Origin: Candidatus Latescibacterota bacterium | GTDB taxonomy: Bacteria; Latescibacterota; UBA2968; UBA8231 | Assembly: GCA_965206595.1 (NCBI GenBank) | Contig: OZ242214.1 | Span: forward strand, 2,080,001 to 2,144,000 | Reading direction: 5' to 3' | Length of the DNA: 64,000 bases | Part shown: positions 7,891-44,376 of the stretch, one piece after another | Layout: each line of letters opens with the position of its first letter | Numbering within the stretch: position 1 is the stretch's first letter | Made by a program: the position numbers and the translations under genes | Notes under the pieces: generated by a model | Seen by the model: only the letters and a program-made list of their open reading frames with translations | The model's database searches: none | Told to the model about the DNA's origin: nothing

Positions 7891-9335
7891 GGCTCGTCAG
7901 TAGAATTCGTGGGTGAATTGTGGCTCGGGTAAATCGCCGAGCTGATGGAATGAAGCGATTTGGAGTGCCTTGAAGGTGCGGCATCCGAATGCTTTTCTCC
8001 CTGTCAGATTCCATTTCAGGTTCAAGCCCTCGACCATGCCGTTGTTGAACTGCTTCCTGGCCCTGAACCAATTGAGGATGAGCTCTTGGTGACGCCGCAG
8101 CATTCCGGCGATGTCTTTCATCGGTTCGATGTTGCTTCTCATCGTACGGAAACACCCGCGCTGGAGGAACTTCTCAGCCCACGCGGAGTAGGTGTAGTCC
8201 CAGAAGCGCTGGAAGTCCTCCTTGAGCAGGTAGGCTCTGACCGTCCGCAGGTTCATCTTCAATAGCTCCGACAGCTTCAAGCCTTGGGGGGGAGTCGCTG
8301 AGGTTCTCCTTGCGCTTCAGGAAGCACCAGCGGCTCTTGCTCAGGACCGGATCCTGGCCCTGTTCTTTGAGTCTGCGGGCCTCTTCGGCACGGACTTTGT
8401 CGAGGGCCTTGCTGAAGTGCTGCATGAGGTGAAAACGGTCGAGAATAGGTACCGCGGTGGGGAGCCGCTTGCTGATAACGTCGAGGTAGGCTTTCCAGAT
8501 ATCAGAGCAGATGACGGTAATCTGGTCGAGGAAACGGGTCGGCTCCTGCTCGCCGCCGGCTTCCTGCTTGCGCCGGTGCTCCTGCTCCCGTTCGGTAAAG
8601 CCGTCGTTCAAGGCCTTCTTCGTCCGCTTCTCGCCCATCCACAACAGGCGGCGGCGGTGGGGGTCGATCTGGTACAGCAACGTCAGATAATGAGGCCCCT
8701 TACGATACTGGATTTCATCCACGCCGAGGGCCGTGACCTGGTCGAGGCAGCGATGAGCGAGCCCATAGTCCACGACGTACTGGACGGAGTGGTAGACCTT
8801 GTCCCAACGGGTCCGGAAGGAACGCGCCACCTCGATCCACGACAGTTTTTTGGCCCCTGGGCCAGGAAGCAGCGGTAGAGGTCGGTCAGGTGGTGCTTGC
8901 CCGTGCTCCAGGGGACCTTCTCGACGACCACCCGGCCGCAGGCTTTGCAGGCAACCCGGCGCATGCGATACACCAGAAAGACCGGAAACCCCCAGAGGGG
9001 AACAAACTCGAACAGCCGGGCCTCGGGGGCCGTGTCATAGGTGGGGGCCAAGTGACCGCAGCCGCTGCACGCGCCCCGGGAGTTTTTCCGTGGCCTTATC
9101 CTCACCATTATCCTTCCGTGCCGGTCAAAATGACTGCCCTCAAACACAAACCGCTTGAAGGTCGTGCACCGGTTTAGTACCGTGATCAGGCGCATCGTTC
9201 CCTCCACAGGTAGTTGGGTTCCGTCTTGGTGGACTGTCCCAACATACCGGGGGATGATGCGCCTGGGCTACCTGGCCTCCTCTATTCCCATCGCCGCAGC
9301 CTCCCCTCCTCACCCACAGATTCTCCAGAGGAGCC
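7891..9335 (-). mobile_element. ISL3-family IS with frameshifted transposase (three ORF pieces)
   Basis: Imperfect IRs GGCTCGTCAGTAGAATTCGTGGGTG / GGCTCCTCTGGAGAATCTGTGGGTG; 8-bp TSD TTCTTTTC (7883-7890, 9336-9343); motifs CSGCG, LGVDEI, DRFH, EGLN. Confidence 0.92.
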
Positions 9336-33254: not shown

Positions 33255-34551
33255 ATGTCGATCAGGACAGGTGCGGCCCAAACCGACATAACCCCTGCCG
33301 GGCCGGTGTGGATGGCCGGGTACGGGGACCGCGACCGGCGCTCCGAGGGGGTGTACCAGCCCCTGAGCGCCGGGGCGATCTATCTCGGGGGAGCTGCCGA
33401 CGAGGCCCTGCTGATCGCCGCGGACCTCATCGGCTTCGACCTCGCGTACGCGGCGCAGGCGAAGCAGCGGATCGCCGCGGCCACCGGCATGCTGCCGCGG
33501 CAGGTGGTGCTGACGGCGACGCACACCCATTGCGGCCCGCTCTTCTACCCGATGATGATGCCGGGCGAGCCGGAGCTGGAGTACGCCGGGCAGCTGTGCG
33601 AACGGCTGGTCGCCGTCGCCGTGGCCGCCCGCGGCGGCGCCGTTGCCGGGCGGGTCTCCTTTTCGAGGACGCGCTCCGGGTTCGGGGTCAACCGCCGGTT
33701 GCCGCGCCATGGCAAGAGCGGTGTTCGCTCCCAATCCGGACGGACCGGTCGACCGCGACCTCGACACCCTCTGGTTCGAGAGCGAAGCCGGCAAGCTGCT
33801 GGCAACCCTGACCGTGTACGGCTGTCACGCCACCAGCATGGGCGGCTACCTGGTCGGCGGGGATTACCCCGGGTTCCTCTGCGCGGGACTGCGGGAAAAA
33901 ACGGGGGCGCCGGCGTTCTTCAGCGCCGGATGCGCCGGCGACGTGCGGCCCTGGTACAACCCTGGGGGAGTCGGCTTCCGGCGCCCTGAGATCGACGAGG
34001 TCGCCGCCGCGGGAAGCGGCCTCGCCGAGGAAGTGCTGGCCGGCCGGGCTTCCTCGCTTCCTGTCGAGGCGGATGGGCTCGAGATCGCAGGTGACTTCCA
34101 CCTGCTCCCCTACGCGGGTCTCCCCGACGCCGCCCACCTCGACCGCTTCGCCGCCCGGGAAGCGGGACAGCGCCGCCGCTGGGCGCAATACATGAAGGAG
34201 CTGCTTTCCCTGGGAGCGCTGCCGGGGGGCTGTCCGCACGAGGTCCAGGTGCTTCAGCTCAACCCGGAATTCCGCGTTCTATTTCTGGGAGGGGAGGTGC
34301 TGAGCGAGATCGGCCTGCACCTGAAGCGGGCCCTGTCTCCCGCGGTCACCGTCGCCGCGGCCTGCAGCAACGGCCTGATCGGGTACATCCCCTCGAAGAA
34401 CGCCTACCCGCTGGGCGGGTACGAAGTCGACGGATCCCACCACTACTTCCGCCTGCCGGCGCCCTTCACCGAGGACGTCGAGGACCGGCTGGTGAGCAAG
34501 AGCGTCAGCGTCGTGGAGTCGATACGCCGGGCACCCCGTGGCCTTGCGTGA
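33255..34551 (+). pseudogene. Neutral/alkaline ceramidase N-terminal-domain protein, frameshifted near 33705 (real or sequencing error)
   Basis: DITP..MAGYG, ATHTHCGP, GVNRR in one frame; PNPDGPVD, YGCHAT, GCAGD, GGYE in the next. Confidence 0.75.
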
Positions 34552-34573
34552 ACCTCCTCCCCGCGGTCCCCAT

Positions 34574-35676
34574 GTTTCAATCCGCTCCCCTCACCGAAGC
34601 GAGGGGAGATTTTGTGCCCTGGTACTTGTTTCAATCCGCTCCCCTCACCGAAGCGAGGGGAGATAGCCATGCGCAGCCTGTGGCGGGATGTGACCAGTTT
34701 CAATCCGCTCCCCTCACCGAAGCGAGGGGAGGGAGACAAGCGAGGCTGATCTCGACGCGAGAATGTTTCAATCCGCTCCCCTCACCGAAGCGAGGGGAGA
34801 TTTTCCGGCGGCGAAGCGGAGAAATCCCAACTTGAGCGGTTTCAATCCGCTCCCCTCACCGAAGCGAGGGGAGATCCGTTGACCCCCAGACTGGTGACGA
34901 TCGTAGCCAGGCTGTTTCAATCCGCTCCCCTCACCGAAGCGAGGGGAGATCCCCCGAGGCGGTCGGCGGGATCGATCTTTCTGTTTCAATCCGCTCCCCT
35001 CACCGAAGCGAGGGGAGATCCCGACCTCCTCGACGCTCGGGCCCCGACCTCCTAGCCGTTTCAATCCGCTCCCCTCACCGAAGCGAGGGGAGATATGCTC
35101 GGCTGGCGTAGCGATTCAGCTACTTCCGAACGTTTCAATCCGCTCCCCTCACCGAAGCGAGGGGAGATCCAGAAGGAAGGGGCCGAACTTCCTTGCCAAA
35201 CGAGGGGTTTCAATCCGCTCCCCTCACCGAAGCGAGGGGAGATTCCGCGCACCTGGGCGAGGCTTCGGCTTCCTGGTAGTTTCAATCCGCTCCCCTCACC
35301 GAAGCGAGGGGAGATCGATACCCTGGAGGTATTCGAGTATTTCTCCGGCGTTTCAATCCGCTCCCCTCACCGAAGCGAGGGGAGATCTGTCGTTTATGGC
35401 CACTTCAACCAACATCGGGAGCAGTTTCAATCCGCTCCCCTCACCGAAGCGAGGGGAGATGTAATGGGGTTCTGAAAATTTCCGGCCTTCTTGTAAGTTT
35501 CAATCCGCTCCCCTCACCGAAGCGAGGGGAGATCTTTCTCCGAAGGGAATGAACAAACGAAGGGGGAGTTTCAATCCGCTCCCCTCACCGAAGCGAGGGG
35601 AGATTCTGGAATCCAAGAACGGGCTGCAAATCCCAGCTTGTTTCAATCCGCTCCCCTCACCGAAGCGAGGGGAGAT
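34574..35676 (-). CRISPR. CRISPR array, 16 repeats / 15 spacers; 37-bp repeat ATCTCCCCTCGCTTCGGTGAGGGGAGCGGATTGAAAC (transcribed strand)
   Basis: Repeats start at 34574, 34628, 34697, 34765, 34839, 34914, 34983, 35058, 35132, 35207, 35279, 35350, 35424, 35497, 35568, 35640; spacers 31-38 bp except one of 17 bp; hairpin with TTCG loop and ATTGAAAC end. Confidence 0.98.
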
Positions 35677-35858
35677 TGCTGGTTGCAGTAACCAGCAGAA
35701 TAACAAAGGGTTACACAGACCAATGCGCGATTCGGTGAAATCGTTGCCAGGAAGGGCCTGACCCGACTGTCGAAAACCGCGATAACCTGTTGCCATGCAG
35801 CCACTTTCCAGTTGCGCGAAAGCATGGACAAAACTCCGGCACTCCACTTTCGCGCGGG
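35677..35858 (-). promoter_or_regulatory. CRISPR leader
   Basis: Lower-GC non-coding gap between the cas2 stop and the first repeat; irregular units lie at the opposite array end. Confidence 0.7.
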
Positions 35859-36149
35859 CTACAAAACCAGTGGTGCGTTCAGGTCCACGGGTTCCTTGAT
35901 TCCGTGATGTTCCGTCTCCTTTCTGGCGTCTTCGTCGATGTGATAAAACCTGAGAGAATCCTGTTTTGGATCGATTTTCTGCAGCAGACGGTTCCTGAGC
36001 GTTGCCCATTCGGTTTTTCCTACCTGACATTCGAACAGCGATTTTTGCACCCGAACGCCGTAATCCTTACAGGCTCTTGCCACTTGGCGCAGCCGCTTTT
36101 GCCCGGCTCGGTCGACAGTGGAAACGTCGTATGCGATCAGGATAAACAT
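35859..36149 (-). CDS. cas2: CRISPR-associated endonuclease Cas2
   Basis: MFILIAYDVS..RLRQVARACKDYGVRVQKSLFEC..DSLRFY. Confidence 0.97.
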   Translation of the reverse strand: MFILIAYDVSTVDRAGQKRLRQVARACKDYGVRVQKSLFECQVGKTEWATLRNRLLQKIDPKQDSLRFYHIDEDARKETEHHGIKEPVDLNAPLVL

Positions 36150-36158
36150 GCGTCAATC

Positions 36159-36194
36159 CCTTCAATCCGTTCTTCTCATCAAGCGCGGGGTGAT
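36159..36194 (-). repeat. Degenerate CRISPR repeat between cas1 and cas2
   Basis: CCTTCAATCCGTTCTTCTCATC-AAGCGCGGGGTGAT matches 28/37 repeat positions by manual alignment. Confidence 0.8.
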
Positions 36195-36198
36195 ACTG

Positions 36199-37260
36199 CT
36201 ACTTCGAGATGAATGGGATGTAGTCGGAGATGTCGCCGCGAAGTGTTCGGGCCAACAGCCTGGCTTGAACACTGAACACTTGCCCGATACGAATATTCTG
36301 CTTGAACAGGGGGTGCTTTACTTCTGCTTGCTTGCGCCGTTGCCAAGCCTCGATGACCTCCTTCCTTCCCCGGTCGGTGAATTCTACGGCGCCGCCTTCT
36401 CGTTCGCGAAAGTGCTTGGACTCGATCTGCCGACGATTGACGAGGGTCAATGCCAGTCGCTCTGCCAGACAGGGCCGAAACTCTTCCATCAGGTCGAGGG
36501 CGCAGGCGGGCCTCCCGGCGCGCGTCGCATGAAGCCAGCCGACGTATGGGTCAAGCCCCGAGGTCGTCAGCGCGGCGAGGCAATCGTGGCGGAGCAGAGC
36601 ATAGATGAAGGAGAGCAGGCAGTTTATCCGATCCCGGGGCGGACGCCGCGTGCGGGTTACGAACCTGAAATCTTCGCGCTGTTGTTTGAGCATGCATCGG
36701 AACACCGAGAAATACGCCTTGGCGCCCAGGCCCTCCATGCCCCTGATCGGGTCGAGCGCTTCCCGTAGCCCGCAATCTGGGGCAACGGGCGGGGCATTGC
36801 CGAGTTGGTGAATCAGTTGGGCAAGTTCATCAGCCGCGCCCGTCAATGCCTTGCGATCCGCATCGCCATCGGTTTCCCGGCCGGAGCGCAAGAGGTTGGA
36901 GCGTGCGTTTTGCATTTTCCCCGCGACGAACTGCCGGGCGATGCGAGTCGCGTCCCGCGGGCTGTCCGCTGCGGCATACTGAGCACGCCGCAGCAAGTAG
37001 CGGGTGTCTCCACTTCCCAAGACTTGCGCCAAGAGGTAGCCGTTCTCGGTGTGGTAATGCACCGCCACCTGATGATCCCAGCACAGGGCCATGGCCGGCG
37101 GCGTAACCACGACCTGCCCGAACGCGCAAATACTTTCCAGATGGTGAATCGGCACGGTCAGGCGGGTTTGTTTTTCGATCTCGACCCGGAGTGTCAAGTG
37201 ATCCCTGAGCACCACGGTTTTCGGTGTCGTCAAGTAAAGAGTGTTTTGGATAACGGCCAT
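36199..37260 (-). CDS. cas1: Type I-C Cas1
   Basis: NTLYLTT, PIHHLESI, GMEG..A..YF, RRPPRDRINCLLSFIY, LDLMEEFR. Confidence 0.97.
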   Translation of the reverse strand: MAVIQNTLYLTTPKTVVLRDHLTLRVEIEKQTRLTVPIHHLESICAFGQVVVTPPAMALCWDHQVAVHYHTENGYLLAQVLGSGDTRYLLRRAQYAAADSPRDATRIARQFVAGKMQNARSNLLRSGRETDGDADRKALTGAADELAQLIHQLGNAPPVAPDCGLREALDPIRGMEGLGAKAYFSVFRCMLKQQREDFRFVTRTRRPPRDRINCLLSFIYALLRHDCLAALTTSGLDPYVGWLHATRAGRPACALDLMEEFRPCLAERLALTLVNRRQIESKHFREREGGAVEFTDRGRKEVIEAWQRRKQAEVKHPLFKQNIRIGQVFSVQARLLARTLRGDISDYIPFISK

Positions 37261-37293
37261 GTTTTATCTCCCATTATCGAAGCAAGTGGGGAC
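37261..37293 (-). repeat. Degenerate CRISPR repeat abutting the cas1 start codon
   Basis: GTTTTATCTCCCATTATCGAAGCAAGTGGGGAC: 19/26 identity over the hairpin part plus a GTTT end, with a 4-nt deletion. Confidence 0.65.
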
Positions 37294-37321
37294 CTCGCTT
37301 CGCACCGAGAGCCGGACGAGT

Positions 37322-38023
37322 CTATTCGGTAGTATCGAACACTGCCCGATAGGCTCGCCCCAGCGTGGGCGGAGCGCTGGTGATTTCGGGAAGGCAATGG
37401 TCGAAAAGCGAGCACTCCGAACATTGGGGCTTGTGGACGGCTTGGGGGACCACTTCCCCTTCGATCAGTCGGTGCATGGCTTCGATGGCCTGTTCGGTGA
37501 GGCGGCGCAAATCCTCGGTAAATTCCACCTCTCGGCGGCGCTTGCTCTTGGCGTGGAAGATCGCCCCCTTGGGAATGTCTAGTCCGAACATTTCTTCGAG
37601 GCACAACGCTTGCGCGCAAAGCTGGGCGTCGTCGTTGTCGAACTTGCGGCGTTTGCCCTTTTTGTATTCAACTGGATAGAGACTGTTGATATTCTCAGGC
37701 GAAAATCGGGATTTTTTTAGCTTTGAGTAGCTTTTGAATTTCACCTCAACAATATCACACTTTCCAGAAAGGCCCAGCCTTTGGGACCACACCGGCAATG
37801 CCCGAAGCACTTCTGTATCTGCCGCTTTCTCATACCCTGGCACATCGGCCTGTTCATGAAATTGACTGCCGATCAGTGTGTGCTCGTTATCGGCAAAGGT
37901 GCCCTCGACATGAATCAATGCCGCCCGCCGAGGGCAATAGAGGTACTGGTTGATAGCGGAGAGCGGAATGATCCGCCCCTCGCTATCGAATGGGTGGACC
38001 GGCTGGATAACCAATTCACTCAT
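37322..38023 (-). CDS. cas4: Cas4 (RecB-like nuclease, Fe-S)
   Basis: YLYCPRR, GKCDIVE, PVEYKKG, QLCAQALCLEEM, CSECSLFDHC. Confidence 0.97.
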   Translation of the reverse strand: MSELVIQPVHPFDSEGRIIPLSAINQYLYCPRRAALIHVEGTFADNEHTLIGSQFHEQADVPGYEKAADTEVLRALPVWSQRLGLSGKCDIVEVKFKSYSKLKKSRFSPENINSLYPVEYKKGKRRKFDNDDAQLCAQALCLEEMFGLDIPKGAIFHAKSKRRREVEFTEDLRRLTEQAIEAMHRLIEGEVVPQAVHKPQCSECSLFDHCLPEITSAPPTLGRAYRAVFDTTE

Positions 38024-38059
38024 GTTTCAATCCGCTCCCCTGCCGAATTGAGAGGAAGC
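38024..38059 (-). repeat. Degenerate CRISPR repeat abutting the cas4 start codon
   Basis: GTTTCAATCCGCTCCCCT (18 nt) identical to the array repeat; about 29/37 overall. Confidence 0.9.
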
Positions 38060-38072
38060 ATATACGTGCAGT

Positions 38073-39026
38073 TCACTCATGACGCCTGTGTAGGAGAACG
38101 CCAGCGGGCACATCGGCACTGTCCCACCCACATCCAACCTCATAATCGGCGAAGGATTCGGGGAATTCCGCGCCATCCTTCAGTTTCACCTCGATTCCCT
38201 CAAAGAGCTTGTGGGCATGGGCACAGCCGAGACGGGCTTCGCGTTTGTTTTGTTCGGCGTTGTTTTCATGTTGGGTGCCGACATGCTCAAAGTCGTAAAT
38301 ACCTCGCACTACCATTTCACCGCGGGCAGCGGAGCGATCATGCTCGAACATGTGGTTGAGCGCATCGAAAAGGATTTCGAGGTCGGCGTTGGTGAAACCG
38401 GTGCGCTCGGCGAAAGCAGGCGAGACGTAAACCTTGGCTGCGTAGAGAGCGTATGGGACGATGTGCTTATTGCCCATGGTACGTTCTTTGTCGGCATCTT
38501 CCTCTTTGGTGACGGCTCCACGGGTGATGGAGATTTCCAATGGCGTGATCGGATGGTACGACTGGCCAAAGGTGAACTGTACCGGGCCACGCACTTGGCC
38601 CCAAGCAGAGCCTTTCATGATGTCGTCGCCCACGGAAAGCACACCACCAAAGGCGCGAATATCAAAGAACTCGCGACACAGCCATTTCATGGCCACTTCT
38701 TGCTTTTGGTCTTTAGAAGCACCAGAATCCAAACTCTCGCCACTTTTCTTAACGGCGGTTGCGATTTCGTTGCCAAGAATAGCACCTTGCCTGACGAATA
38801 GGTTGAAGCCATTGCCATTGTCGCTAGCACGCTCGGGTGGGAACGTTTCCACGAAGTTGCGCACCTTGCGCTTGAGGCACACGTCGGAGACGATTCCCCG
38901 ATTGGTGTTGTGGTCTTGGCGCGGCATGTTACCAGCATCGGGATCGCCATTGGGATTTCCGTTGGTGACCTCGAAGAGCAGCAAAATATCATGCCGATTG
39001 GTGAGAATGTCGTTGTTTTGACTCAC
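38073..39026 (-). CDS. cas7: Type I-C Cas7 (Csd2)
   Basis: NGNPNGDPDAGNMPR, SDVCLKRKVRN, FFDIRAFG, VRGPVQ, TMGNKH.VPYALY, FEHDRSAARG. Confidence 0.97.
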   Translation of the reverse strand: MSQNNDILTNRHDILLLFEVTNGNPNGDPDAGNMPRQDHNTNRGIVSDVCLKRKVRNFVETFPPERASDNGNGFNLFVRQGAILGNEIATAVKKSGESLDSGASKDQKQEVAMKWLCREFFDIRAFGGVLSVGDDIMKGSAWGQVRGPVQFTFGQSYHPITPLEISITRGAVTKEEDADKERTMGNKHIVPYALYAAKVYVSPAFAERTGFTNADLEILFDALNHMFEHDRSAARGEMVVRGIYDFEHVGTQHENNAEQNKREARLGCAHAHKLFEGIEVKLKDGAEFPESFADYEVGCGWDSADVPAGVLLHRRHE

Positions 39027-39049
39027 GATGATTTCCTTTCTGTGGAGGA

Positions 39050-39463
39050 TTATTGGTTGCTTCCCTTTTTTTCTTTTGCTGCCTCGCGGGCGACGCGATC
39101 AGCGGCTTTTTGCTGATAAAAGCCGAGGGCAAAACGCCCCTGCGCGTGCAAATCCAGTGTACGGGGGAATGGGTAGATTTTAGTTGACACTTCTTGAATA
39201 GCCTCGTCTAAGAAGCGGTCATGTCCTTTGTACTTATCGGATTTGCGGATATTGTTGAGATGGTGGCGGTTGAGCTTGAGGAGGACGGGGAACACCGAGG
39301 CTGGCGAAGCCATGGCAGTACCAAAATAACGCTCGACGACTCCGGCCCCTTCGAGCTGATAATCATGTGCCTTGGCTTGGGTCTCGGCGAGTACAGCGAG
39401 TAGGCGTCCGCATTGATAGGCGGCATCTTTCGCTTTTGCGTCCTGTTGTTCAGTAATTTCCAT
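39050..39463 (-). CDS. cas11c: Probable internally translated Cas11c small subunit (137 aa)
   Basis: In-frame ATG at 39463 (MEITEQ..) preceded by AAGGAAAG; internal Cas11 translation from cas8c is established for type I-C. Confidence 0.7.
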   Translation of the reverse strand: MEITEQQDAKAKDAAYQCGRLLAVLAETQAKAHDYQLEGAGVVERYFGTAMASPASVFPVLLKLNRHHLNNIRKSDKYKGHDRFLDEAIQEVSTKIYPFPRTLDLHAQGRFALGFYQQKAADRVAREAAKEKKGSNQ

Positions 39464-40897
39464 AGTGCTTTCCTTTCGGTTCCGATTGAGAATGAGCTTC
39501 GCCAAGGCGAACCGTGAATGGTTCAACAATGCCGTGCTTCCATCGCGTGCCATATCAACGCGCAGGCGGTTCAACATGGGATGCAAAAGAGCAAGCGAGG
39601 GCGCAGTCCCTTCCAGCGCGGTACGAAACAACTGAGCGGTCACTTCCGTCTGCAAATCTTTTGCGTCGCGTACTGTAGTGCAAGCTAATCGGAACAGGGC
39701 TAGTGGCGGCATCTTTTCTTTGCCGGTGGGCAGGCGCACCGGCTCCAGATCGAGATCGTGGAACCAGCGCCGCAGGTTTTCCGTGGCGGTTTCCAGCGTA
39801 GTCTGCATCCAGTGGCGCACAACAATCCGCCCGCTGTTGCCTGCGAGAGTGACTGCATGGAATTGTTCCTGCCTCAGTGCCTCGCGTTCCCGGCCAGCCC
39901 ACGGAGACTTCAGGAAATCCGCCACTGCTTTGGGGTCGGCTTGGTTGAGTAAAGCCCCAAAAGTGCTGGTGGCGTCCGTTTCATTCCGGGTCCAAAAACA
40001 GCACGATGCTTGCCCTAAGCGGATAGAATGATCGTCGTGGCTAAGCATGGCATTAAGCGCGGTGCAATAGGCGGTGGCCGCCCGGGTGGAAGTAGAAGCG
40101 TTGAGACTTTGCTCAAAACCGTAGGAGGCGAAGGCATCCTTATCAAACGAGACAATCGCCGCGCCAAAGGCTTGGGTGTTGGGTACGCTTTGGATTTTGG
40201 GGTTGTGGGTCAGCGCAATAGGCTGATCGATCTCCCCGGTGACCAAGCAGAGTCCGTGAGGTGCATCCGCCTCGTGGTCTTCATTTTCCTTCTCGAATTG
40301 GCTCCGCCAAAAGGGCCGGATGCGAGTTTCATCCTCCAGCAGCAATTGTTCCTCCACACGGAATGAGAAGTTGTCCGGCCCCATTTTAACCTCTTCCCCA
40401 TCGGCTTTGGTGATCCACCAAGCAGGTTTCTCCCTAGACTTGGCGTCGGAACTGATACCCCAGCGCAAAAAAGATGGCATCTGCCCCGGTTCTGGCTTGA
40501 AGGCTAACAGAGTCTTGAGCGTAGGGCTGAGTGTTTTCTCATGGGCCTGTTCAATCTGTGCCCAAAAGTCATTGTACTTACGGAGGTTGTTCTCATTCCG
40601 GTTCTTCCGCTTCTTTTCGGACATAGGTTGTTCCGGATTTGTGTCCAATCCGAATACAGCCGTAATGCCGTCCGCCATGAACTCGGCCACCCCGCCAGCC
40701 ACCTTGGGCCGAGTTGTCTGTGGGCAATCGAACTCCTTGCCCCGGTTCCTTTCCCCCTCGGTTTCCACCGGTCCCTGCCCCACGAGATTGCCCATCGTGT
40801 CCAAAGTAATGATCCATCGCACCGCCTTGGGTTTGAAAGCTAGGTTATCGAGCAGGTTGCGAGAGTTCGCAAAATCGTTCAAATGTTGCAGCAGCAT
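39050..40897 (-). CDS. cas8c: Type I-C Cas8c (Csd1)
   Basis: CLVTGE, IVSFDKDAFASYG, NSGRIVVR, YQCGRLLAVL, QGRFALGFYQQ. Confidence 0.95.
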   Translation of the reverse strand: MLLQHLNDFANSRNLLDNLAFKPKAVRWIITLDTMGNLVGQGPVETEGERNRGKEFDCPQTTRPKVAGGVAEFMADGITAVFGLDTNPEQPMSEKKRKNRNENNLRKYNDFWAQIEQAHEKTLSPTLKTLLAFKPEPGQMPSFLRWGISSDAKSREKPAWWITKADGEEVKMGPDNFSFRVEEQLLLEDETRIRPFWRSQFEKENEDHEADAPHGLCLVTGEIDQPIALTHNPKIQSVPNTQAFGAAIVSFDKDAFASYGFEQSLNASTSTRAATAYCTALNAMLSHDDHSIRLGQASCCFWTRNETDATSTFGALLNQADPKAVADFLKSPWAGREREALRQEQFHAVTLAGNSGRIVVRHWMQTTLETATENLRRWFHDLDLEPVRLPTGKEKMPPLALFRLACTTVRDAKDLQTEVTAQLFRTALEGTAPSLALLHPMLNRLRVDMARDGSTALLNHSRFALAKLILNRNRKESTMEITEQQDAKAKDAAYQCGRLLAVLAETQAKAHDYQLEGAGVVERYFGTAMASPASVFPVLLKLNRHHLNNIRKSDKYKGHDRFLDEAIQEVSTKIYPFPRTLDLHAQGRFALGFYQQKAADRVAREAAKEKKGSNQ

Positions 40898-40899
40898 TA

Positions 40900-41703
40900 T
40901 CAGATCCCCTTGGGTTCGAGGATTTCAACTTCGTCGGGATGACAAGCCAAGGTAGAATCCTCTATCTTGGCGCGAAAGAAACAGGCCCTAGGTTGAGCCT
41001 TTTCGCCGACAAAACGCGGGGTATTCTTCTTGGTCTTGGATCCCAATTCATCGGGGCGTTTCCAGCGAAAACCTTGAGCGCGGGCCGTGGGCGAAAAAAC
41101 ATCGTAGAGCATCAAGCCCAAGTCCTCCACGGGCTGTCGCCAACAGGTGCCCAACTCAGTAGCTCGCTGTTCCAAGGTAGCCTGTGGATCATCCACCCAC
41201 TCGAAATCCGCCGCGAATTCACGCATACCCAAAGCAGGCCGGTGGAAGCACTTGCCTTGCTGAGCGCGGCGTTTGAATTCAGCGAAGTACTTCATCGGCG
41301 TATCGGTCGGGCGATCCGCTAACGGCGTGGTACGCAGTTCGGCACTGATGATGTATTCCACCTCTTGTAGCGCCAACATGTTGCGCTGGGTACCATCAGG
41401 CGCACCGCCCCCGGCCTCGATGGGCGATACTTTCTCCGGCTGTGCCATCCATTGGCCGACATTGCGCAGGCTGATGACCGACTGCACTTCATTGCGCCGA
41501 ATCGAAGCCCACCGGCCTCGCCGAATCACTCGGATGGCAGCGACGCAATAGCAAACTTGAGGTTCCCAAAAAACGGCTTCCAAGATTCCCCGTGCGGCAG
41601 AGGGCGTCATCACCGGATAGCTGACGCGCTCCACTTTCATTTCGGGGCGAGTGAAACAGGCCCAATCTCCCCATACTCTCAGGTGTACGTGGTTGTTTTT
41701 CAT
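40900..41703 (-). CDS. cas5: Type I-C Cas5 (Cas5d, crRNA-processing)
   Basis: WGDWACFTRPEMKVERVSYPVMTPSAARGILEA, RRNEV, P.LG.REF; no cas6 in the locus. Confidence 0.97.
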   Translation of the reverse strand: MKNNHVHLRVWGDWACFTRPEMKVERVSYPVMTPSAARGILEAVFWEPQVCYCVAAIRVIRRGRWASIRRNEVQSVISLRNVGQWMAQPEKVSPIEAGGGAPDGTQRNMLALQEVEYIISAELRTTPLADRPTDTPMKYFAEFKRRAQQGKCFHRPALGMREFAADFEWVDDPQATLEQRATELGTCWRQPVEDLGLMLYDVFSPTARAQGFRWKRPDELGSKTKKNTPRFVGEKAQPRACFFRAKIEDSTLACHPDEVEILEPKGI

Positions 41704-41716
41704 TTCGATCCCCGAA

Positions 41717-43933
41717 TCATAACAAGAAATCCTCGGTCGGACGTTGGTCGATAACTACGCCGAGATGTTCGTGATAGGCTGCCTCATCCAATACGCTCAG
41801 TTCCATACCGGGCAACAGCGGGCGAAGCAGTCCCATTTTATCAGCCTTCTGAAAGTCGCGCAAATGCAGATTGACCATAAAGCGTTGGAGATCGCGCAAA
41901 TCTTTACGAGTGAAACGCGCACTATCTATTTGGGTGCGCTCCCGGATAGCGGCTACCTTTTCCAAGGCTCTCTCCCTTGGCGCAATTACGGCTCGGGTGT
42001 CATCGGAGATTACCTTCGCTTTTCGGGCTACTTCGCGGAAACGCAATGCCTCCCGATCCTCCTGAATAGAGCTCTCTCGTCGGTGCTGATGATCCGTGGG
42101 TACGTATTGAAAAAGTTCGCCAAAATAGCGACGGAATAGATCCGGCTTACCAGACAAGTCATCCGCAGATAACTGATCCAGCAAACGCGCCGCGATGTCC
42201 GTAGCTACGCGATATACTCCTCCGGGTAGCTTGGCGTCCGTTGGTCGGAATACTACTACACGCCCCTTGTCTGGCAGGAGTCCTTCCCGATTGCAGCGAC
42301 CCGCTGCCTGCACGATCGAATCCAGTGGCCCCAAGGCGCGATAAACCAACGGAAAATCAATATCCACACCGGCCTCTATCACCTGCGTTGCCACCAACCA
42401 GCAAGGTTTGTCGTTTTCCAAACGCCATTGTGCCTCCGCCAGCACTTTGGTACGATGTTCGGCGCACATGGCAGAGGAAAGATGCATCACTCCTTCTAAT
42501 CTTTGTCTATGCAACAGTTCCCACCATTCAGCCGCCTGTTTGCGCGTATTCACCACGCCTAAAGCTTGAGGCTCGATCGACCATTCCTCAGCCAATTCCG
42601 ACCAATCGTTTTCCGTGGACCGCACCTCGTAAACTACCCGGCCTAACTTCTGAAACAACTCGCCAGGCTCCGACGCAATCTCTTTCACTTCCTCCGCATC
42701 GAAACCATTCGACAACGATCTGCTGCGACTAAAGGCTGGTTGGGTTGCGGTGGAAAAAACGAAACTCGCGTGGTAGTGTTCCTTGATATCTCGCAGGATA
42801 TGCAGGAGCGGATTGAGCAGATGCGAAGGCAGCGTCTGCACCTCATCCAGTAATACCACGGAATTCGCAATGTTGTGTAGTTTCCGACACTTGGAGGTAC
42901 GATTGGCAAAGAGTGACTCGATGAACTGCACTGAGGTGGTGACCATGACCGGTGCGTCCCAGTTTTCCGCTGCTAGTTCCTCTGGAGATCGGCATTGCTC
43001 CTCATCGTCATCCCTTGTAACTACTGCCGAATGATGCTCGATCACGATGCCTTCGTTTTTCGGATCAAGCACTTTGCGATATTCGGCGGCGTTTTGCTCA
43101 ATGATTGATAGGTAAGGTATAACCACTACCACACGCTCCATCTCATGTCTCCGCGCATGTTCCAAGGCAAAAGCCATGCCCGATAGCGTTTTTCCCCCAC
43201 CAGTCGGCACGGTTAAAGAAAAGAAACCTGCTGGCTCCGCTGCCTGCGCCAAGCAGTCCTCAAACACTCTGTTGCGCAACCGATTGAGTTCGCCGAAAGA
43301 ATTAAACTTGACTCGGTGCGCTTGCAGTCGCTTCAGCAGCAACGGGGCATTCAGCTTCACCGGACAGCGTTCTCGCCCTGTGCTGAATTGTTCTGTATCC
43401 AGAAAATCCGCGTCAACTAGGCAGGAAAACAGCATTCTCACGTAGAATTCGGTGACGGCCTTATCCTTCTCGGGATTGGCAAATTCCGGCTCGACCAGTT
43501 CTGCGGGAACTTTCCCCAGTTCCTCTTCAAACTGCTTTACCAGAGGACTGAGCCGGTTCATGGCATCGTATTTTTCTCCGCAGACGAATTCCTGCAAATC
43601 ACTCACGTTATGAAGGCCCGCATGATGTCCGCCAACGGCAAACGCCGGTCCCAGCCATTCTCTGTTGAAGGCCAGCGCAGCACCATACACTGCATGATGG
43701 GTTTCAACCGACCCCGGACGCTCCCCTGCCAGATACTCTTGAAAAGCCTCACTATATTTTCCCAGATCGTGGAGCAAACCGGCCAATTTGGCAGCGTTGG
43801 CAAAACCAAGTGGCTCGGCGAATTCCCGAGCATTGTCCGCTACGTTTTGCAAATGCTCGGATAATGGTTGCCAGTGTTCTTGGTTTAACCGCCCCCCAGT
43901 AGCCGTTTCAGCTGTATGGGCGTAATAGTTCAT
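41717..43933 (-). CDS. cas3: Cas3 HD nuclease-helicase
   Basis: YYAHT, LLHDLGK, LVDADFLDT, PTGGGKT, LDEVQ, STAT, QAAGRCNREG. Confidence 0.97.
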   Translation of the reverse strand: MNYYAHTAETATGGRLNQEHWQPLSEHLQNVADNAREFAEPLGFANAAKLAGLLHDLGKYSEAFQEYLAGERPGSVETHHAVYGAALAFNREWLGPAFAVGGHHAGLHNVSDLQEFVCGEKYDAMNRLSPLVKQFEEELGKVPAELVEPEFANPEKDKAVTEFYVRMLFSCLVDADFLDTEQFSTGRERCPVKLNAPLLLKRLQAHRVKFNSFGELNRLRNRVFEDCLAQAAEPAGFFSLTVPTGGGKTLSGMAFALEHARRHEMERVVVVIPYLSIIEQNAAEYRKVLDPKNEGIVIEHHSAVVTRDDDEEQCRSPEELAAENWDAPVMVTTSVQFIESLFANRTSKCRKLHNIANSVVLLDEVQTLPSHLLNPLLHILRDIKEHYHASFVFSTATQPAFSRSRSLSNGFDAEEVKEIASEPGELFQKLGRVVYEVRSTENDWSELAEEWSIEPQALGVVNTRKQAAEWWELLHRQRLEGVMHLSSAMCAEHRTKVLAEAQWRLENDKPCWLVATQVIEAGVDIDFPLVYRALGPLDSIVQAAGRCNREGLLPDKGRVVVFRPTDAKLPGGVYRVATDIAARLLDQLSADDLSGKPDLFRRYFGELFQYVPTDHQHRRESSIQEDREALRFREVARKAKVISDDTRAVIAPRERALEKVAAIRERTQIDSARFTRKDLRDLQRFMVNLHLRDFQKADKMGLLRPLLPGMELSVLDEAAYHEHLGVVIDQRPTEDFLL

Positions 43934-43977
43934 TCACTCAGCTTCCGACCATGTTGTGAAACAACCCCCCCGGCGCC

Positions 43978-44376
43978 TCAAATCGGATGCCGAGCGGCGC
44001 TTTTTATTCCGACGGCCTTCAACAAAACGGCCGGCAGCCGCTTCAGTTCTTTGTTGCGCGGATCGACCTCGAATCCGCCTGACTCCAATGCCGTAACGCC
44101 GAGCAAGGGTTCCGCGCCTTCGTCCCCGTACACGATCGCGCCACCGACGACTTCTCCCTCGAACTCGATCTCGGCGATGGTTATGTCAAAGGCGATGGAC
44201 TTTCCGTCCGGAAGCACGTATTCGCGGCGGCCCCTCGGTTCGAGTCCGATCGCTTCGAGGCGCGCCCTCGGAACGAGTGAGTCGAACGCGCCTGTATCGA
44301 CCAGGAATTTGCCGGTCCAGCTGCGTTGCGGGTCTGCGGGATTGCGGATCGTTACGTCAACATAGGTCGCGCCCAT
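43978..44376 (-). CDS. Clan AA (retropepsin-like) aspartic protease
   Basis: FLVDTGA and PLLGVTALES motifs, 132 aa; GGAG RBS. Confidence 0.85.
   Translation of the reverse strand: MGATYVDVTIRNPADPQRSWTGKFLVDTGAFDSLVPRARLEAIGLEPRGRREYVLPDGKSIAFDITIAEIEFEGEVVGGAIVYGDEGAEPLLGVTALESGGFEVDPRNKELKRLPAVLLKAVGIKSAARHPI

Follow-up and report, generated by a model that had tools for sequence, protein, structure and literature searches.

The studied window, a 64-kb stretch of contig OZ242214.1 from a Candidatus Latescibacterota bacterium, carries a minus-strand type I-C CRISPR-cas operon with the order cas3-cas5c-cas8c-cas7-cas4-cas1-cas2-array, in which all seven cas genes matched NCBIfam type I-C or core Cas models. 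Each of the three adaptation genes is preceded by a degenerate copy of the array repeat; the copies are referred to as psiR4 (before cas4), psiR1 (before cas1) and psiR2 (before cas2). On the sequence comparisons described below, we lean towards the view that they are solitary repeat copies kept as translation initiation regions of cas4, cas1 and cas2, with psiR4 as a special conserved case. The features of the locus are as follows.

41717-43933, minus strand: cas3, HD nuclease and helicase (NCBIfam model).
40900-41703, minus strand: cas5c, pre-crRNA (CRISPR RNA precursor) endoribonuclease family (NCBIfam model; matches to solved Cas5c).
39050-40897, minus strand: cas8c (Csd1; NCBIfam model).
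38073-39026, minus strand: cas7 (Csd2; TIGR02589, E 2.3e-86).
38027-38080, minus strand: upstream open reading frame (uORF) of 17 codons running through psiR4 (sequence reading).
38024-38060, minus strand: psiR4, a repeat copy directly before the cas4 ATG, with a hairpin of 7 bp and a fully matching 11-nt handle at 38024-38034 (30/37; covariance model).
37322-38023, minus strand: cas4 (TIGR00372, E 2.5e-38).
37952-37987, minus strand: conserved hairpin within the cas4 coding region (folding, covariation).
37261-37297, minus strand: psiR1, a decayed repeat copy flush with the cas1 ATG (alignment; homologous copies).
36199-37260, minus strand: cas1, type I-C Cas1c (TIGR03640, 414.7 bits versus a cutoff of 385).
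36150-36195, minus strand: psiR2 region, with the repeat copy at 36159-36195 and then a second partial handle, GGATTGAC, up to the cas2 ATG (alignment).
35859-36149, minus strand: cas2 (TIGR01573, E 3.7e-16).
35677-35858, minus strand: leader, from the cas2 stop to the first repeat (leader end kept in related loci).
34574-35676, minus strand: CRISPR array with 15 exact 37-nt repeats and one variant (34697-34733), 16 in total (repeat scan, covariance model).

Read in the RNA sense on the minus strand, the array repeat is the 37-nt sequence ATCTCCCCTCGCTTCGGTGAGGGGAGCGGATTGAAAC. Its fold is a 10-bp stem capped by a TTCG loop and followed by the 11-nt tail CGGATTGAAAC, here called the handle (−20.9 kcal/mol, z −4.5 versus shuffles); the first-pass annotation of this DNA had likewise read 11 nt after the repeat stem. 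The spacers in the window are 34-37 nt long. The leader-distal end of the array is irregular, with the repeats at 34574 and 34628 spaced 54 nt apart and thus separated by a 17-nt spacer, and the variant repeat at 34697-34733 scored 54.9 versus 65.2 bits in the covariance model (CM) described below.

The array repeat was compared by local alignment with the whole window on both strands, and significance was evaluated by dinucleotide shuffles of each upstream region (3000 trials). The array itself scored 70-74, the copies before cas4, cas2 and cas1 scored 41, 33 and 20, respectively, and the best unrelated site scored 26. The psiR4 copy is identical to the repeat at 30 of 37 positions (gapped), with the last 18 nt exact, and ends flush with the ATG at 38023; its score was reached by none of the 3000 shuffles. 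The same was true of psiR2 (28/37), which ends 9 nt upstream of the cas2 ATG at 36149. The psiR1 copy (26/37, gapped) is flush with the cas1 ATG at 37260, and its score was reached by 16 of 3000 shuffles of its own region and was no better than the window-wide background. It was nevertheless counted as real, because the homologous cas1 junctions of six related loci (L063, L064, L050, L040, L054 and L053) carry clear repeat copies. All three copies have the same sense as the array, each of them overlaps a translation initiation region, and no comparable match was found in the window before cas3, cas5, cas8 or cas7 (scores of 13, 17, 14 and 11). The first-pass annotation had proposed three same-sense copies confined to the adaptation genes, two abutting the ATG and one ending 9 nt before it, and this description was upheld, the cas1 copy by homology. 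An exact repeat match of at least 16 bp, the criterion that Shmakov et al. use for solitary repeat units (SRUs), is contained in psiR4 with its 18-nt exact run; the longest exact run of psiR2 is shorter than 16 nt, and psiR1 also lies under such a threshold.

The three copies differ in their state of preservation. A CM of the repeat, built from 23 related array repeats and run with the filters off, found psiR4 (21.9 bits, E 1.9e-4; array repeats, 65.2 bits) and nothing else in the window beyond the array; psiR1 and psiR2 gave no hit there even at E≤10. Among the 150 of 9750 candidates scored in the bacterium's own 7-Mb genome, psiR4 was the best non-array hit. Its hairpin consists of a 7-bp stem that ends at the handle (−9.3 kcal/mol, z −0.9 versus shuffles). 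The psiR1 sequence (−6.5 kcal/mol, z −0.1) has no repeat-register hairpin left, and psiR2 (−8.1 kcal/mol) adopts a non-repeat fold, its 3' arm having decayed. The handle matches CGGATTGAAAC at 11 of 11 positions in psiR4, 9 of 11 in psiR2 (CGGATTGAAGG) and 6 of 11 in psiR1, where it is shortened and brings GGGAG to 7 nt from the cas1 ATG. Before cas2, a tandem partial handle duplicate (36150-36169) reads GGATTGAA and then GGATTGAC; handle duplications akin to this one recur before cas1 in L053, L037 and L040. The best explanation for psiR1 and psiR2 in the window is that they are decayed relics acting as ordinary leaders.

Searches with Cas4 and Cas1 gave six loci from related genomes and 41 loci from species-representative genomes (L0xx), six of the 41 being identical to the first six. 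In the window and the 41 loci, the array repeat of each locus was scored against positions −75 to +11 of each gene start, with the 99th background percentile as the threshold. Above-threshold copies were present before cas4 in 5 of 40, before cas1 in 11 of 42 and before cas2 in 5 of 39 cases, as opposed to 0 of 8 for cas3, 1 of 29 for cas5, 0 of 27 for cas8 and 0 of 37 for cas7 (1/101 for the effector genes together); these loci are kin, and the counts are not independent events. The same placement in homologous loci, which the first-pass annotation had named as a check, was thus seen. By curation, 31 copies were recognised, namely 5 before cas4, 15 before cas1 and 11 before cas2. Many relatives have lost copies or have overlapping cas1 and cas2. 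Unrelated type I-C systems were represented by 6 of 45 matching plasmid records, 5 of them with arrays. The annotated cas4, cas1 and cas2 genes overlap or sit at most 10 nt apart in all six, and no copies were found in the five loci with arrays, whose own repeats scored 10-16 (gene sense) before cas4, cas1 and cas2. Therefore, the layout is a trait of this adaptation-module family and not of type I-C systems generally. A metagenome scan for the psiR4-cas4 junction with the pattern CGGATTRAAACATGARTRAA returned 11 matches, none of which had a repeat-like hairpin upstream or cas4 downstream; one of the 11 was an ordinary array.

Cas1 is 76-90% identical in 33 related loci, and the effector modules of these loci vary, being close type I-C modules, type I-C modules at 30-42% identity or a different type I gene order. 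The combination of such similar adaptation genes with widely differing effector modules is what would be expected if the copies were recombination joints for swapping adaptation genes between CRISPR-cas loci, and Shmakov et al. (2023, PMC10120712) raise the possibility that recombination between loci is helped by solitary repeat units. In three of the seven profiled pairs (WIN/L063, L041/L050 and L036/L043, WIN being the window), however, the jump in identity lies approximately 350 nt inside cas4 and away from the repeat copies, and we regard this explanation as very improbable. As a separate observation, the block running from the C-terminal half of cas4 through cas1, cas2 and the leader to the repeat is highly similar between L032-L064 and the window, in records whose titles name several phyla, and is joined to different effector modules.

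The part of the repeat that persists in the copies was established from the curated set. The handle is kept at 9 or more of 11 positions in 23 of the 31 copies, even where the hairpin is gone, as before cas1 in L041 and L039. The hairpin parts of the 31 copies fold at −1.0 to −13.6 kcal/mol, versus −16.4 to −19.2 kcal/mol for array repeats. The hairpins of the copies did not exceed the stability of array hairpins carrying an equal number of simulated random substitutions (1 of 31 at P<0.05; Fisher P 0.07). The stem covariation in homologous loci that the first-pass annotation had suggested looking for was not significant over the 31 aligned copies, as 65.5% of cells pair, versus 63.6 ± 1.4% after column shuffling, a value reached by 54 of 500 shuffles. 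Since pairing and stability are at random expectation, the hairpin is not under general selection; selection acts on the 3' arm and handle. The conserved part of the copies is the 3' arm (GGAG) together with the 11-nt handle, and the rate at which the hairpins decay is close to that predicted for random mutation.

The preference for the 3' half is consistent with a role in translation initiation. The 16S rRNA of the bacterium's own genome ends in ...CACCTCCTTTCT, which contains CCUCC, so GGAG can act as a Shine-Dalgarno (SD) sequence, and we infer that the purine-rich stem arm of the copies is used in this way. Selection would act on the 3' half of the copies because the GGAG stem arm would pair with the CCUCC of the 16S rRNA 3' end; the 11-nt handle would set the spacing to the start codon and, in some relatives, supply the start codon itself. 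In ten loci, the junction sequences place the predicted start at a TTG inside the handle GGATTGAAAC, with GGAG 6 nt upstream. This TTG-type start was assigned to cas1 in L032, L037 and L040 and to cas2 in L033, L034, L036, L043, L045, L048 and L049, and the genes concerned (cas1 in three loci, cas2 in seven) lack the ancestral ATG. In L037, L033 and L034, the handle TTG is the only ATG, GTG or TTG codon between the in-frame stop and the conserved N-terminus. No sigma-70-type promoter or intrinsic terminator was apparent at the three junctions of the window, where the counts were not above those of shuffled sequence.

Constraint on the copies was evaluated by comparing intergenic identity with identity at the 4-fold degenerate sites of cas4, cas1 and cas2. 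The cas7-cas4 intergenic region is identical at 42 of 49 positions between the window and L041 (0.67 at 4-fold sites, P 0.0025) and at 44 of 49 positions between L053 and L054 (0.69, P 0.0007). Read by hand, the differences between the psiR4 stems of the window and L041 keep the pairing and none falls in the handle, and the cas4 copies of L053 and L054 differ by a C-G to U-A double change. Some pairs show constraint upstream of TTG-type cas2 genes (P 2.6e-5 and 0.011). The cas1-upstream regions of relatives evolve at the 4-fold rate (0.67/0.69, 0.76/0.76, 0.70/0.71 and 0.77/0.71), and intergenic regions are less conserved than coding sequence. The psiR4 copy evolves more slowly than synonymous sites and is under purifying selection.

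These results bear on the view that all three copies, including that of cas4, are neutral leftovers of rearrangement in 5' untranslated regions and have no role. The near-neutral decay of the hairpins, the synonymous rate upstream of cas1 and the lower conservation of intergenic than coding sequence agree with it, as does the judgement of Shmakov et al. (PMC10120712) that most solitary repeat units are spurious duplications. It does not account for handles that outlast their hairpins, for a handle that gives the predicted start codon in ten loci, or for the psiR4 and TTG-type psiR2 regions, whose conservation exceeds that of 4-fold sites (P 0.0025, 0.0007 and 2.6e-5). The flush placement at the start codon of all three genes, counting the cas2 copy of the window at 9 nt, also speaks against it. 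Taken as an explanation for the whole set, neutral debris is unlikely.

At the opposite extreme, the first-pass annotation had proposed that Cas5c or Cascade binds or cuts all three copies, strips the SD sequence and thereby exerts feedback on spacer acquisition. The shared sense of the copies, the handle positions kept (11, 6 and 9 of 11 before cas4, cas1 and cas2) and the restriction to adaptation genes would suit such a scheme, since recognition by Cas5c is reported to centre on the cut site and the handle (PMC8524198), and processing of solitary repeat units by Cas5c in type I-C operons has been described (bioRxiv 10.1101/2024.12.27.630466). The cas1 and cas2 copies of the window, however, have lost the repeat hairpin and escape the CM at E≤10, and the handle before cas1 retains 6 of 11 positions. 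The 31 copies also pair and fold at the level of random decay (65.5% versus 63.6 ± 1.4%, 54/500 shuffles; 1/31 at P<0.05, Fisher P 0.07), cas1-upstream regions change at the 4-fold rate, and in many relatives the copies are lost or cas1 and cas2 overlap. Feedback through three sites is therefore not supported, and we consider it improbable; action of Cas5c remains plausible for the cas4 copy alone, with its 7-bp hairpin, its 11/11 handle, its purifying selection and the SRU precedent.

The cas7/cas4 junction retains traces of how psiR4 may have arisen. An ancestral-type 8-nt overlap of cas7 and cas4 is kept in five related loci. In all five loci with a cas4 copy, 8-13 nt from the start of cas4 are duplicated at the cas7 stop, which leaves a uORF of 12-17 codons running into the copy. 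In the window, the uORF (38027-38080) starts at this relic cas4 ATG, overlapping the cas7 stop, and reads through psiR4; in both the window and L041 it terminates at a TGA that belongs to the handle and precedes the cas4 ATG by 3 nt. The 9-nt string ATGAGTGAA is present at both ends of the psiR4 insert in the window. We suggest that psiR4 was inserted into the ancestral overlap with its repeat-type hairpin and exact handle retained, and that the short uORF may keep the translation of cas4 coupled to that of cas7. The carriers of a cas4 copy fall into two groups on the Cas7 tree (17 rows; at least three changes, with weak support), and the filler and duplication lengths differ between the groups; therefore, more than one insertion is possible. 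On the Cas1 tree (38 rows; the truncated or frameshifted L064, L069, L071 and L072 were excluded), the cas1 copy has a scattered distribution in a clade of 32 rows and is missing from the outgroups; at least five changes are required. As a side observation, six loci (L037, L044, L047, L056, L066 and L069) have a 360-485-nt gap at the cas7/cas4 junction, which in the two examined (L037 and L044) holds an open reading frame (ORF) of 132-144 amino acids matching retropepsin-like aspartyl protease models (PF13975 and PF13650, E 1e-5 to 1e-7). The junction thus has three states, namely the overlap, a repeat copy or an extra gene.

As to the source of the copies, the one before cas1 in L040 is preceded by 31 nt matching the end of the leader of that locus; thus at least that copy derives from a leader-proximal repeat. 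The first-pass annotation had described the adaptation genes as lying like giant spacers in an extension of the array, and this idea gains some support from L040, a single locus. Rearrangements by duplication and deletion, most likely of the leader-proximal repeat, would have placed solitary copies at the 5' edges of cas4, cas1 and cas2. An account of the flush junctions in terms of the protospacer-adjacent motif (PAM) was considered and dropped, because the triplets before the junctions (GTC, TCC and TCC) are not TTC, the reported type I-C PAM.

The Cas5c of this operon, the enzyme that would act on psiR4, matches solved Cas5c endonucleases with E values of 1e-37 to 1e-39. The catalytic triad of Cas5c is reported to have only the lysine invariant, and changes in the loop and on the 5' side of the substrate are tolerated, recognition centring on the cut site and the downstream handle (PMC8524198). 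In type I-C operons, Cas5c is described as cutting solitary repeat units so that the 11-nt handle remains, and the 3' end is marked there by a hairpin further downstream (bioRxiv 10.1101/2024.12.27.630466). The psiR4 copy fits the substrate so described; psiR1 and psiR2 do not. That Cas5c still recognises psiR4 appears possible, with our judgement falling slightly to the negative side of even. If it did, a cut at the base of the psiR4 stem would yield an effector mRNA ending in a hairpin and separated from the adaptation mRNA, and the latter would start with the 11-nt handle directly before the AUG, without the SD sequence. Ten public RNA runs were found, all kept as contigs, and four of them (X1, X2, X9 and X10) were placed on 34400-44100; they gave two contigs over cas2, one of 220 nt (35939-36155) and one of 207 nt (35911-36117), further contigs on some array repeats and diverged pieces over cas7, and these do not bear on RNA ends, strand or level.

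A second element lies downstream of psiR4, within cas4. The hairpin at 37952-37987 (minus strand) has 15-16 bp and starts at +37 from the ATG, that is, 36 nt after the psiR4 handle, a gap within the range of the array spacers. It folds at −26.2 kcal/mol (z −4.9), which none of 200 shuffles equalled. Across 17 related cas4 genes, 72.8% of cells pair, versus 32-53% with the partners slid, 2 of 500 shuffles reach the observed value, and seven pairs are changed on both sides. The 5' arm encodes DSGER and the 3' arm the conserved IPLSAI. The hairpin predates psiR4, because it is found in loci lacking the copy, and in L036 it forms a perfect 16-bp stem. No such hairpin was found at the 5' ends of cas1 and cas2. 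The sequence of the 5' arm, GAGGGGCGGAT in the window and GGAGAGCGGAT in L036, is similar to the junction of stem base and handle in the repeat; a sense-strand second repeat inside cas4 is not claimed, as alignment by hand gave about 21/37, which is no more than background similarity. Two further Cas4-related regions lie in the same genome: a second array at approximately 6.772-6.778 Mb (outside the window), with a related repeat scoring 26.8-28.1 bits in the CM, adjoins a second Cas4 homologue (41% identity), and a third, longer Cas4-like ORF lies at approximately 2.911 Mb.

The arrangement of psiR4, the first 36 nt of cas4 and the downstream hairpin resembles a crRNA in shape. One could imagine that Cas5c cuts psiR4 and that Cascade subunits load on the handle and cover the cas4 start, in which case the effector module would throttle the adaptation module post-transcriptionally with a guide taken from the target mRNA itself, and such sites would arise repeatedly by duplication of leader-repeat units before adaptation genes; we consider this scheme rather doubtful. 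The spacer-like distance of the hairpin would also suit a guide of the CreR, CreA or crlRNA kind, in which a copy and its downstream sequence direct Cascade to a partly matching, PAM-flanked promoter and repress transcription. Solitary repeat units in type I-C operons are reported to work so (bioRxiv 10.1101/2024.12.27.630466), and creA-like elements have been noted for type I-C (10.1101/2023.03.10.532045). However, in the 64-kb window, the only DNA searched, no target with a TTC or TTA PAM exceeded those of shuffled guides, the best seed (10/15) equalling the controls. Moreover, the would-be spacers are the coding 5' ends of cas genes and the downstream hairpin is older than psiR4, so that a guide function appears exceedingly improbable. 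The best chance matches in this search, two near-identical stretches of about 38 nt at 7909 and 46969 on the plus strand (GTGGGTGAATTG...GGGTAAATCGCC...), may belong to a repeated element.

Several points weigh against the interpretation of the copies as retained initiation regions with a specially conserved psiR4. Kinship among the loci makes the counts overstate their independence. With 11 nt between GGAG and the ATG, the spacing is longer than usual for an SD sequence. The psiR4 hairpin is weak, with a z of only −0.9, and in the window its stability does not exceed that expected after random mutation of the array hairpin (P 0.38). Changes that preserve pairing are few among the cas4 copies and were assessed by hand. 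The uORF, translational coupling or a promoter could account for the conservation of the cas4 intergenic region instead. The 11 nt upstream of the psiR4 hairpin, CACGTATATGC (38049-38059, minus strand), are themselves invariant between the window and L041. At two of the three positions of the catalytic triad, alignment places Phe and Tyr in Cas5c of the window where the two best-matching solved chains have His, the Lys being kept; since only the Lys is stated to be invariant, these residues lie within the variation reported in the literature. Only one locus has a leader remnant to support the duplication-deletion origin, and self-derived spacers as a source of the rearrangements found no support, as none of 1032 spacers matched cas regions beyond chance hits of 15-19 nt. 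As for the sequence around CACGTATATGC, three of the 5 nt preceding it differ between the window and L041, and it could be a −10-like element or part of a conserved unit.

Solitary repeat units in cas loci, type I-C included, are already known as a kind of element. The SRU/crlRNA of type I-C (bioRxiv 10.1101/2024.12.27.630466) is the closest parallel in the available account: a single degenerate repeat in the operon, in the sense of the genes, forms a hairpin followed by a conserved 11-nt segment and is cut by Cas5c 3' of the hairpin, with a downstream hairpin marking the 3' end. That element lies between cargo defence genes and cas5c and guides Cascade to a PAM-flanked promoter, whereas the copies of the window abut the cas4, cas1 and cas2 starts, their would-be guide is coding, no target was found in the window, and two of the three are without the repeat hairpin. 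The SRUs of Shmakov et al. (2023, PMC10120712) are likewise repeat-derived sequences outside the array and inside cas loci, conserved in related loci, but they are reported as enriched near cas3 (I-E, I-D and I-F1) and cas6 (I-B), in long intergenic regions. The searched text of that study gives no positions for type I-C and no copies that abut a start codon; the supplementary position tables may already hold type I-C cases like the present one. With the CreR/CreA mini-CRISPRs (bioRxiv 10.1101/2023.03.10.532045), the copies share the presence of degenerate repeats in cas loci that are tied to control of Cas expression. In those elements, as described, two degenerate repeats flank a spacer complementary to a cas promoter and repress transcription, whereas the CM found no second repeat-like unit 20-60 nt downstream of any copy in the window, and the hairpin 36 nt after psiR4 is not followed by a handle. 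Compared with the canonical Cas5c substrate as reported for pre-crRNA processing (PMC8524198), psiR4 is embedded in an mRNA directly before a start codon and has a weaker stem with G-U pairs and a longer loop, and it is a candidate site only. In the literature searched, position tables in supplements aside, neither the placement against the start codons of adaptation genes nor the donation of a start codon by a repeat was found.

Csy4 and Cas6 hairpins have been engineered into synthetic operons as insulators between cistrons. Cleavage of psiR4 by Cas5c, if it occurs, would likewise split cistrons at a CRISPR-type hairpin, with a different enzyme and, unlike that engineered device, in a natural operon. 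To our knowledge, the separate setting of adaptation and effector gene expression within one operon is poorly understood. The comparison of loci also revealed the hairpin inside cas4 and a mosaic adaptation module distributed across genomes labelled as several phyla. The copies described here are evidence, read directly from sequence, that CRISPR repeats can be reused as an ordinary part of gene expression, a ribosome-binding region, and in ten related loci the repeat has donated the predicted start codon of cas1 or cas2. Should psiR4 be cut, it would represent a defined site at which Cas5c may naturally uncouple spacer acquisition from interference.

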